A stretch of DNA of 64,000 nucleotides, from the NCBI GenBank assembly GCA_951406725.2, contig OX597826.1, positions 39,680,001-39,744,000 on the forward strand, read 5' to 3'. The position numbers and the translations under genes were made by a program. The notes below the pieces were generated by a model. That model made no database searches. It had not been told where the DNA came from and saw nothing but the letters and a program-made list of their open reading frames with translations. Of the stretch, positions 2,523 through 34,303 are shown piece after piece (within the stretch, counting starts at the first letter, position 1; each line of letters begins with the position of its first letter). Origin of the DNA: Octopus vulgaris (taxonomy: Eukaryota).

Positions 2523-2908
2523 ACTCTTTACTCTTTTACTTGTATCAGTCATTTTACTGCGACCATGCTGGAGCACCACCTTTAGTCGAACAAATCGACC
2601 CCAGGACTTATTCTTTGTAAGCCTAGTACTTATTCTATCGGTCTCTTTTGCCGAACCGCTAAGTTACTGGGACGTAAACACACCACTATCGGTTGTCAAG
2701 CGAAGTTGGAGGGACAAATACAGACACACAAATACATGCACATATATATATATACATATATATACATATATACGACGGGCTTCTTTCAGTTTCCGTCTAC
2801 CAAATCCATTCACAAGGCTATAGTAGAAGATACTTGCCCAAGGTGCTATGCAGTGGAACTGAACCCGGAACCATGTGGTTAGTAAGCAAGCTACTTACCA
2901 TACAGTCA
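2523..2908 (-). mobile_element. SINE family A, inserted in the Gypsy integrase
   Basis: Reverse complement of the 19767-20165 copy. It splits the integrase between ...EVKIP and WSRLHINF. Confidence 0.9.
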
Positions 2909-3772
2909 CTGGTCAAGATTACACATCAATTTCGTGAGTCTGTTAAATGGTATTACTTAGTAGTATCTGATAGTTTTACAAAATGGTCTGAAACGGTTAA
3001 AGGCAAAAGACCAACCTTCTCAACTCTAATAAAATGTTTTCACGAATTATTCGCAAGATTTTGCATCCAAGACGTGATTGTGTCTGGTAATGGAACACGA
3101 TTTGTGTCCAGTGAGTTTAGAAAATTCTGTGAAGTGTTCACGGTAGAACATATAACAATAGCGCCTTACCCTTCCAGATCATATGGAGAGGAGGAAGCTT
3201 TTGTTGGTAACTTTAAAAGAGGTTCAAGAAAAGCAAACAAGGAAGTCACAGACGAATTCGCTTTTCAACAATTTTTAAGAGTGTACAGGGTGACACCGAA
3301 CCCGAATACACAAGCAGAACAGATGTTCGCGAAGAAGGTGAAATTAGCTTTTGATAAATTGCTACCTGGCAAGGAAGGAAACAGTGCCAAGAAGGATATA
3401 TCAACATTTTTCAAAATTGGTGTACATGAGGTCGTATAAAAACAGAAAACAGTACTGGGAATAAGGCGAAATTGCAAAGTACAAAAGGAAAAATGATATA
3501 TGAGATGAAAAGCAATAAAGGTATTGAAAAATGACACAGAAACCAGTTAAAGAAGAGATTCATAGAAAATTAACCAAACAGGTTGGGAGTAACTATAGAA
3601 TGGATGTATGCCACATTCCAGGTACCAACGCCGTTACAGATGGTTGAACCCACGCGTACAAGTGGAAGAAAAAGGAAGAACACAGCGTTCCAAAAAATAG
3701 ACGCCAAAACGAAAAAATATTAAGTTGTACAAAAAAATAATCAAGGGAAAAAGAAAAAGCTAAAAGGGGAGA

Positions 3773-31689: not shown

Positions 31690-32980
31690 TTGTTATATGA
31701 TTGTTGGTATTTCCGTTCAGAACAGGTTTGAACATTTTAATGAAACGTTTTTCTTTTATCTTTCTTCCAACCTCACTTGTTGCGTCCCCAAAGACTATCC
31801 CCTCCTCACCGTGGTGGGGACGCTGGCAACGGGTGGTGTCAGAGCTATGCCGTCGGGAACTTCGGTTCCTGGTAGGGCCACCCAAGGCGGATCGGTCCGA
31901 CACCGAATGGTATTAGGGCCACAACCCGACAGACGGAGTGTCTGTTTCGGCAACCGGCGGCTCCTCGGTCGTTCTGTCCCTGCGTCTGCGGCAAACAGGA
32001 TGTCTCTACATGCGGGATTGTTGGGGACCGCTTGTGAAATCCACATATTCCCACGAAACTTCTTCCATGAATTCTCAATGGCGAATACAATGGCAAAATC
32101 GGCCTGCACCGATGGAACCGTGACTGGCTCGCTATCTCCAGTGAACTGGCGCAGGACCGTCGTGCGTGGGCTGCCATAGTTCAAGATGCCTCGAGGGTGA
32201 TAGAAGAAACCGACTCAACCCGCCCAGGGGGAATGTCACCACAAGTACAAGTAAGTAAACCTCACTTGTGTCTTGTAGTTTGTGAAAAATTAGAAACATA
32301 AGAAAAATTAGAAAAATTAGAAACATTTTCTGATCACATGTTTCTATATGCTCGCTCTATGGAATTTGGCGAACATTAGTGTTCCGGATATTTGTTGTCT
32401 GTGAATACGTGAGCGTTCTGATAATGCATTACCTGTCTCACCAATGTATAATTTCACGCAATTAGGGCATGTAATACAGTATATCAATTTCCTGCTCTTG
32501 CAGTTCATATATGCATTTGTGAAAATCTCTCCATTTTTTTTCTAATGGATTTACCAGTATGCATGTATTCACACGTTCCACATCTGTTATCATTATAATT
32601 GGATATCGTGAATGTTTTATCCTATTTATTCATGTTTGATTAGTTAAGTTTTTTAAATTTTCACTTTGTTTCATGATTGGCAAATTTGTTTTGATGATGT
32701 TAAAAATGTTTTGGTGATGCGGACTACGTTTTATTACAAATGTTATTGTGTTCCACTGAAGGGTTCGTCTTCTTGTGTTGCCCTAAGTTGTTCTATCGGT
32801 ATCTCTTTTACTCGTTTAATACTATTTTCTATAAGTAGGAGAGGGTATTTTTGCGTGAGCAGAAATCTTTTGAGTTCTATAAGTCGTATGCTCCTGGTAT
32901 TTGAATCTTATACTATAATACAAATTTTCCTGGTTAGACAATGTACAATTACATGTCATGTAATTCCTTTAACATGAAGA
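31690..32980 (-). mobile_element. Penelope-like element GIY-YIG region, interrupted by an insertion
   Basis: MNCKSRKLIYCITCPNCVKLYIGETGNALSERSRIHRQQI. The C-terminus IFHKLQDTSEV|GRKIKEKRFIKMFKPVLN is restored when 31781-32257 and one TSD copy are removed. Confidence 0.85.
31781..32257 (+). mobile_element. Non-autonomous bipartite RTE-derived retroelement (5' UTR + 3' end)
   Basis: 12-bp TSD AACCTCACTTGT (31769-31780, 32258-32269). RTE/BovB-like 5' motif GAGCTATGCCGT...AGGGCCACCCAAGGCGGA. RTE C-terminus GLHRWNRDWLAISSELAQDRRAWAAIV...STRPG. CAAGTA-type tail. Confidence 0.85.
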
Positions 32981-33393: not shown

Positions 33394-34303
33394 TTGGGTC
33401 GTCTCATAAATAATGCGGTGTTTTTAATTGCATGAACTAAAAAGTCTGAGGAGAGCGGGATAAATTATGTGCAGCAACTTGCCATAAAAGCAGGTAGTAA
33501 TTTTACCTTGTACTTATTCTTAGTTCAAGTTTTGAAGAGTGCATTGAATTGTAACAGTTATTTTTTCAAAACTATAATGGAAGTGACAAAGGAACATATT
33601 CGGCATAGTTTGCTTTATGAGTTCAATAAAGCAATAACGCAACGGAAAGTGCGAGGAATATTAATGCAGTATATGGGAATCGGACAACAAGCGTACGACA
33701 ATGTCAACGGTGGTTCCAGAAATACCGACCCGGAAACAACTAGCCTGGAAAACGAGCCTCGTTCTGGGAGATTTGTAGAGCTCGACGAGAACGTCCTGCA
33801 AACCCTGGTGAAAAAAAATCCCGCCGTAACTGTCAAGCAGAGAAGCTTGGATTTGGTCATCCGACCAGTCATTCAAGCAAGCGCTAGTAGAAAACGACCA
33901 TCTTTGATTTGAAGACGAATGATGTTCTTCTATCCGGTTAATGCTCGACCACATACAGCGAGGATGACATTCCAAAGGCTGGAGCACTTTGAATGGGAAA
34001 CGATGCCCCACTCACCATATTCGTCGGACATTGCCCATCTTATTATCATTTATTCGGCTGTCCTCAAAATCATTTGGACAGAAAAAAATGAATTCTGTAG
34101 ACGAGGTTAGAACAGTGCTGGAGAAGTATTTTTTTTCATGAACAAGTGAATTTTGGAGAGGAGCCTTGGAAGTATACCAGATAGATAGGAGAGCAACGGA
34201 GAAAATGAAGGAGAGTATATTTTACATCTGAAAAAAAAACACTTTGTCTTAATTTTGAAGAATAAAAGAATAAAAAAACCGCATTATTTATGAGATGACC
34301 CAA
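33394..34303 (+). mobile_element. Mariner transposon, internally deleted, with intact TIRs
   Basis: TIRs TTGGGTCGTCTCATAAATAATGCGGT / ACCGCATTATTTATGAGATGACCCAA with TA TSDs. Peptides MEVTKEHIRHSLLYEF, ENEPRSGR, NARPHTA and HSPYSSDIA. Confidence 0.93.

Follow-up and report, generated by a model that had tools for sequence, protein, structure and literature searches.

The window analysed here is a stretch of 64,000 bp of Octopus vulgaris DNA. It contains an insert of 477 bp (31781-32257) with a GC content of 57%, compared to 30-32% in the 1-kb flanks. The insert is bounded by an exact 12-bp direct repeat, which has no third occurrence in the 64-kb window, and ends in a CAAGTA/TAAGTA tail. These features had been named in a preliminary description of the locus, and re-reading of the sequence confirmed that all of them are real. 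The same applies to the MANTMA start, as the ATG at 32078 is the start of the parent ORF, and to the RTE-type C-terminal codons: positions 32098-32229 match residues 992-1035 of a 1035-aa protein (66%, E 6e-13). The short element itself has no coding capacity, and its start codon is out of frame with the remaining C-terminal codons. One detail had to be corrected: the predicted helix P1 does not start one base inside the duplication but at 31782, two bases past its end, with T31781 as an extra base. All coordinates are collected in Table 1.

Table 1. Features of the insert and of its target site, in positions of the 64-kb window; folded elements are predictions.
Feature	Position	Strand	Remarks
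Left target-site duplication (12 bp)	31769..31780	.	
Internally deleted RTE-type LINE copy	31781..32257	+	Family length ~509 nt; window copy without 21 and 11 nt
Extra T between duplication and P1	31781..31781	+	Likely untemplated or microhomology base
P1 5' strand	31782..31789	+	Predicted +1 at G31782, immediately preceded by the putative cleavage site
Predicted P2 5' strand	31795..31802	+	One substitution in window copy; partner deleted there
P3 (two C-G pairs and U-U opposition) closing the 7-nt L3 (31806-31812)	31803..31815	+	
P1 3' strand (31816-23) and two P1.1 bases (31824-25)	31816..31825	+	P1.1 bases pair with L3 positions 2-3
Junction into P4	31826..31830	+	C31827 at the place of structural C41 of genomic HDV
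P4 domain	31830..31928	+	Basal stem 31830-34 with 31924-28, 8-bp stem, three-way junction, side hairpin
J4/2	31929..31934	+	Predicted catalytic C31930, conserved A31933; 31929 is A here, G in family
21-nt deletion site	31934..31937	+	Removes most of P2 3' strand; 3-nt microhomology
Remainder of RTE 5' UTR	31937..32077	+	11-nt deletion in window copy
Pyrimidine arm	32059..32065	+	Predicted partner of purine arm near 3' end
Parent start codon region (MANTMA) and deletion junction	32078..32098	+	Out of frame with C-terminal codons
Last 159 nt of parent	32099..32257	+	~50 C-terminal codons running into microsatellite tail
Purine arm	32203..32209	+	6/7 pairs with pyrimidine arm in window copy
Right target-site duplication (12 bp)	32258..32269	.	

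Elsewhere in the window, positions 2678-3439 hold the remnant of an integrase core (Pfam rve, E 1.6e-7, just under the cut-off). A 158-aa open frame at 33436-33912 has no Pfam match; judging by eye, it resembles the remnant of a transposase N-terminus.

Aligned to other loci of the same genome, the insert is an internally deleted RTE-type LINE in which the 5' UTR of a 3.4-kb parent is joined to its final 159 nt. The window copy corresponds to positions 1-329 and 3238-3396 of the 3396-nt long copy L061, with identities of 89% and 92%. Long copies were located by searching the genome with protein P0004, the 1035-aa endonuclease and reverse transcriptase whose C-terminus is matched by the last codons of the insert. 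Five of them (L061, L063, L064, L071 and L076) are 87-93% identical to a typical short copy in the 5' part and 90-95% in the 3' part, and endonuclease and reverse transcriptase are encoded between them; the long copies examined contain stops or frameshifts. A single ORF with AP endonuclease and reverse transcriptase as well as the microsatellite tail of the parent fit RTE, and we assume this clade name on the basis of domain order, single ORF and tail. The subfamily of the window copy (A) has two sisters, B and C. Subfamily B reaches 70-77% in the 5' UTR and also has short derivatives. A SINE with a small-RNA head was considered and ruled out, as the alignment with the parent LINE begins at the first base of the element; likewise, no Rfam family of the tRNA, 5S or 7SL type matches the insert.

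Of the candidates found with the element in the 2.8-Gb genome, 40 were scored and gave 47 matches. All copy numbers are minimum values, as the covariance model was run on selected loci, and the first-look candidate counts (1938, 1208, 851, 375 and 1133) overlap between subfamilies and are not copy numbers. Divergence from the majority sequence was 1.9-9.9% with a median of 3.7% (n=30 copies) and 3.1% for the window copy; CpG sites differed at 9.3% and other sites at 2.8%. This sample, which was picked by likeness to the window copy and not by age, shows an older burst. The element can thus be called young, as proposed earlier, in a relative sense only: the copies are ~4% diverged and even the closest pair among 28 is 3.7% apart.

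The expected large number of copies with one and the same junction was found, as at least 32 share that of the window copy. They were counted among 60 short copies, a set enriched for this junction by the aim of the search, so that 32/60 is not a frequency. About 12 other junctions occur in the same set, several in 3 to 7 copies and several seen once, and the sequencing contigs contain further joints. Such a variety is what one would expect if most short copies were one-off internal deletions that arose while the long LINE was copied, instead of self-propagating families. This is improbable, however, given that the 32-copy junction includes three to four bases absent from the parent at that place, and that other junctions, too, are common to several copies. 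The shared junctions point to amplification from short templates, and together with target duplications and the microsatellite tail they are marks of a bipartite non-autonomous LINE. A query inside the 5' UTR found 29 short copies and 1 long copy among 30 loci. At several loci (L027/L249, L076, L117, L122, L266), a full copy is preceded by a duplicate of the 5' part, a pattern expected from template jumps.

Uniform 5' ends had been predicted for the family, which holds for the full-length copies, as these begin at the first base of P1, but not for all copies, since some ends lie further in. With a junction query, alignments started at +1 to +3 in 15, at +4 to +12 in 9 and at +51 or beyond in 6 of 30 copies. 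A second cluster of 5' ends is visible in many copies at element positions +4 to +13, just past the 5' strand of P1. Conservation is 0.71 at +1 in subfamily A (n=49) and 0.73 in subfamily B (n=30), and upstream of this position it declines to the level of the flanks. In both, +1 is the first base of P1, the G of an 8-bp helix in A and the C of a 7-bp helix in B; sequence and length of P1 differ between the two, yet the 5' boundary tracks P1 in each. The boundary of subfamily C (23 copies) is blurred by a run of C. A T precedes the first base in 17/34 full-length A copies compared to a background of 31% (p = 0.014), while the B copies (8/19) show no enrichment. R2 elements, which cut at their own 5' end, are described with untemplated bases and microhomologies of a like sort (PMC3774820), and by analogy T31781 is likely such a base. 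Identical 5' ends would also result from an internal promoter with its start site at +1.

The comparison of the three subfamilies with 17 RTE 5' ends from other organisms suggests that the 5' end of the family likely folds as an HDV-like ribozyme of ~163 nt with a large P4 and C31930 as the predicted catalytic residue. P1 starts at the 5' boundary, comprises 7 bp in B and 8 bp in A, contains one C-A mismatch in C, and covaries; typical P1 helices have 6-7 bp (PMC4908430, PMC3774820). P3, usually a 3-bp helix closing a loop of 7-8 nt, consists here of two pairs and a U-U opposition, the latter forming the first P3 pair in 13/13 rows, and closes an L3 whose first U and a G near the end are kept in all three subfamilies. 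P1.1 is paired in 96% of cells, and the homologous pair covaries in the 17 outside RTE ends. The P4 interior is a conserved RTE three-way junction with a UUCG hairpin (31855-70), whereas the basal stem and the side hairpin change on both sides between subfamilies (the basal stem between A and B). Compensatory changes between subfamilies are present in both P1 and P4. Downstream of P4 follow a G, the motif C-N-R-A, a C and a run of G pairing with a run of C before P3. The J4/2 motif (window 31930-33) reads CAGA in 41/52 A, CCAA in 27/28 B and CTAA in 15/21 C copies. P2, for which at least 5 bp are expected, is composed of 4 + 3 pairs around an internal loop, with 7/7 pairs in 41/46 A copies retaining the strand, and shows no covariation because it is invariant across the three subfamilies.

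All core elements are intact in 11/55 A and 8/30 B copies. Two-sided changes within this genome affect 6/48 pairs, a number reached by 181/500 shuffles because only three independent lineages contribute. The folding energy was not better than that of shuffled sequences (z -0.9 and -0.3), although minimum-energy folds cannot represent pseudoknots, and free folding recovered the same P4. When the window stretch and 8 long copies were scanned with Rfam, none of its ribozyme families reached the threshold.

The outside RTE ends were collected with a 5'-UTR motif, which identified 62 loci in metagenome contigs, 27 of them distinct and with full span. Fifteen of the 27 together with L149 and L156 make up the 17 rows; the other 12 (near-duplicates, truncated or degenerate) were left out by eye, a choice that favours structure. 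In these rows, 90% of cells are paired and 19/32 pairs show two-sided changes, a level reached by 0/500 shuffles, with covariation in P2, P3, P1.1 and P4. At least 6 Watson-Crick pairs form in the P1 of 16/17 rows compared to 10% of swapped pairs (0 of 100000 permutations), and a C occupies the catalytic position after P4 in 17/17. This covariation assigns the HDV topology to RTE 5' ends of this type, with a large P4 in which the UUCG hairpin lies. From the outside rows alone we built a covariance model, which matched 31780-31922 at 53 bits, a score that is partly circular as it includes the motif used to collect the training set. In A, B and C, the model places P3, L3 and the inner P4 but leaves the outer P4, J4/2 and P2 unaligned. 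The whole set of 62 metagenome 5' ends (L139-L200), with a clean covarying HDV-like fold of ~150 nt, could seed a family model.

The preliminary description had placed an HDV-like fold at the head of the element, and the topology is supported. The proposed structure was, however, a compact ribozyme of 57 nt without P4, with C31827 as catalytic residue and P2 formed by 31794-800 with 31831-37; the fold favoured here is about three times longer. Part of the compact structure is present: 31782-90 is complementary to 31815-23, the 7-nt loop and the UUCG hairpin exist, and P1, P3/L3 and P1.1 hold. Its P2 does not, as 7/7 pairs form in the window copy only, via three substitutions that the family does not share. 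The same helix reaches 5/7 pairs in 37/53 family-A copies and is paired in 48% of cells over the three subfamilies without any two-sided change. Moreover, its 3' strand is the covarying basal stem of P4, and two unpaired bases are left between P2 and P3. C31827 is an A in 28/28 subfamily-B copies, and the corresponding stretch in subfamily C is all A and one base shorter, while homologous RTE ends place the catalytic C after a large P4. Far from being absent, P4 is a large domain (31830-31928) in which the UUCG hairpin is embedded. The sole ribozyme match in Rfam aligned the first 62 nt to an HDV family and scored 17.1 bits (E = 2), where the gathering score is 44. Ribozymes without P4 are on record (PMC10879173, PMC3774820), which made the compact idea reasonable, yet the subfamily comparison rules it out, and as a whole it has hardly any probability left.

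Two related ideas were also rejected. If P1 were read as a 7-bp helix from C31783, the P1.1 pair kept in 17/17 outside RTE ends would be lost, and the copies keep the G at +1. The three P2-improving substitutions of the window copy do not qualify as compensation for its deletion, as L291, which shares this deletion and has a different junction, lacks all three.

The window copy itself is probably inactive as a ribozyme because it lost the required P2 3' strand by the 21-nt deletion; in addition, the base before the predicted catalytic C is A instead of the G of the family. The cleavage test suggested for this locus, using a transcript of 31740-31900, would probably give a false negative, since this RNA ends before C31930 and derives from a copy without the P2 3' strand. 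The strand is missing in 9/55 A copies as well as in the long copy L061. Deletions at this spot, J4/2 and the P2 3' strand, were found in 6/26 copies compared to 4 deletions in the rest of the element. Judging from 39 copies picked for a deletion there, which have many breakpoints and mostly no shared substitutions, these seem to have arisen by chance in individual insertions. In two pairs of copies, deletion and junction type are both shared, and these could represent tiny lineages in which strand-less RNAs were copied again. The hot spot covers element positions 140-172 (window 31921-31940) and may be where the reverse transcriptase runs into the folded ribozyme or into a local hairpin.

Taken together, we consider it probable (about 0.7) that the element is a short RTE derivative which is spread by the enzymes of its parent LINE and cuts itself at +1 by the ~163-nt HDV-like ribozyme, with a probably inactive copy in the window. 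Observed are the bipartite anatomy, the parent, the target duplications, the shared junctions, the 5' ends at the first P1 base and the compensatory changes in P1 and P4. In the proposed life cycle, read-through transcription from host DNA would provide the RNA, which would fold into the double pseudoknot and be cleaved at +1 with C+149 (window 31930) as catalytic residue. The LINE protein would then capture the 3' end of the short RNA and insert a copy by target-primed reverse transcription.

A different explanation is that the fold is a relic or a binding or stabilising structure, and that the 5' end is set by a promoter at +1, by an exonuclease or by a reverse transcriptase stop at the helix. 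The deviations in the core (U-U in P3, the 8-bp P1 in A, the split P2 without covariation) would agree with this, as would the finding that 29/29 short copies found by a query of about +100 to +190 keep the UTR up to 308-329, far beyond the need of a ribozyme. Furthermore, the 5' end of L1Tc/ingi is reported to have both promoter and ribozyme activity (PMC4758252). Nevertheless, we regard this explanation as clearly the less likely one: all three subfamilies retain P1.1, L3 positions 1 and 6, the C predicted to be catalytic and the A that ends J4/2, the two middle bases of J4/2 vary while the flanking ones hold, and the 5' boundary follows P1 in A and B. Mismatches in P2 and P3 are tolerated by R2 ribozymes (PMC3774820), although this tolerance of like departures does not demonstrate activity in the octopus family. 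The four sets of sequencing contigs cannot show transcript starts, strand or level and therefore say nothing on cleavage.

The positions of the junctions follow a pattern of their own. In all 29 short copies found with the 5'-UTR query, the 5' part ends at 308-329 and the 3' part starts at 3116-3344 of the parent. With few exceptions, the junctions are flanked by two complementary arms, one at each end of the parent ORF: a pyrimidine arm at 302-308 and a purine arm at 3342-3348. Of 60 A copies, 44 have 7/7 pairs between the arms, 13 have 6 and 3 have 5, and both arms pass a motif test in 22/24 B copies. The shortest copies are reduced to a hairpin, and L293 lost the purine arm. In the long copies, the terminal 40 nt rank among the best 3% of partners in 7/9 and poorly in 2/9, and end pairing clearly beats shuffles in 4/9; the segments were chosen after the arms had been seen. 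A wide 78-nt segment gave a weak result, with the terminal window ranked 2 to 252 of about 490, and a swap test separated C from A and B, while A showed no preference for its own end.

These data lead to the tentative idea, for which we see somewhat less than even odds, that RTE RNA is closed end to end: the start-codon region would pair with the last codons, the reverse transcriptase would jump the neck of the loop, and deletions would take out the ORF in the loop while sparing the two arms. Alternatively, the clustering could stem from short direct repeats close to the start codon or from a requirement for the complete UTR. The bias of internally deleted derivatives toward RTE has been called unexplained (Kojima 2018, PMC5786205), and end pairing was not found in the accessible text of the literature searched, including the papers on bipartite RTE elements. 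If end closure were true, it would, in combination with a promoter-free, self-cutting 5' end, explain the recurrent ribozyme-headed mini elements of RTE. The deletion hot spot at J4/2-P2' would then be the genomic footprint of an enzyme stumbling on the folded ribozyme.

Bipartite LINEs without ORF have been catalogued for RTE, Ingi, Vingi and R2 (Kojima 2018, PMC5786205), and such RTE derivatives are called common (Kojima 2020, PMC7245038). As far as these two papers describe them, RTESINE1/2, WALLSI3, MAR4_MD and Bov-A resemble the octopus family in having the same two RTE ends from the first base of the parent, no ORF, a microsatellite tail and target duplications in the range of 7-15 bp known for RTE (PMC6007223). 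Unlike these, the octopus elements represent a new family in a new host, with at least 12 independent junctions in one subfamily and additional ones in a sister subfamily, and their junctions are bounded by two complementary arms, a feature absent from the published descriptions consulted. HDV-like ribozymes at RTE 5' ends were reported by Ruminski et al. (2011, as cited in PMC5786205; the review PMC6765202 agrees). They share the position and the P1/P2/P3/P1.1/P4 topology, and L3 and the inner P4 junction are homologous between RTE 5' ends and the octopus family. The latter departs from them in the U-U first pair of P3, the 8-bp P1 in A, the split P2, the rebuilt outer P4 with an added hairpin and an extra C after J4/2; these differences are relative to descriptions in the citing papers.

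A tested precedent exists in the R2 SIDEs and R2/R1 hybrid SIDEs of Drosophila (PMC3414825), which likewise combine a 5' HDV-like ribozyme with a LINE 3' end, an internal deletion and copying in trans; RIME and NARTc of trypanosomes are grouped with them as elements of like kind (PMC3414825, PMC5786205). The SIDEs are rare and site-specific in 28S rDNA, whereas the octopus family is dispersed, RTE-derived and abundant. Compared with genomic HDV (PMC1874588), and with the match of numbering being inferred, the junction into P4 of subfamily A carries the bases of the C41:A43:C44:G73 quadruple (C, A, C and G), and C75 and A78 are likewise represented by C and A. The quadruple match would make C31827 the structural C41 and C31930 the catalytic C75. 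In contrast to genomic HDV, the octopus P4 measures ~100 nt, +1 forms a G-C instead of a G-U pair, and the C41 equivalent is absent in B and C.

The literature search found no paper on this octopus RTE family, and the word ribozyme does not occur in the accessible portions of two octopus papers; Repbase entries or the supplement of PMC5786205 may already contain the family. It is likely a new family of a known kind with a probable HDV-like ribozyme variant at its head. The element as such is ordinary, as bipartite RTE derivatives and RTE 5' ribozymes are both published. The corrected fold and the residue to mutate would keep a cleavage assay from being spent on a dead copy. Three subfamilies with dozens of intact and damaged copies provide a natural series of an HDV-like variant that is missed by Rfam. 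In addition, the clustered independent junctions make the question of clade bias (RTE versus few other clades) testable, and are also relevant to how templates are designed for RTE-based gene-writing systems, where the cargo lies between cognate UTRs (PMC13708176).

Three further observations concern other copies and LINEs of this genome. The long RTE copy L064 (G000:C4:96494200-96501000) has its 5' third inverted relative to the 3' part. L059, L060/L077 and protein-search matches at 30-32% identity belong to another LINE family, which is apparently much younger and has uninterrupted frames of 1040-1100 aa in several copies; the RTE 5' covariance model found no match in L077. Finally, a chimeric subfamily (L066, L067, L079-L093; e.g. 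G000:C2:64653499-64653904) joins the 3' end of another abundant repeat to RTE subfamily C. Subfamily C is cut exactly at P3, so that the 5' strands of P1 and P2 are lost, which fits Kojima's argument that the ribozyme has to be disabled before a new head can be kept.
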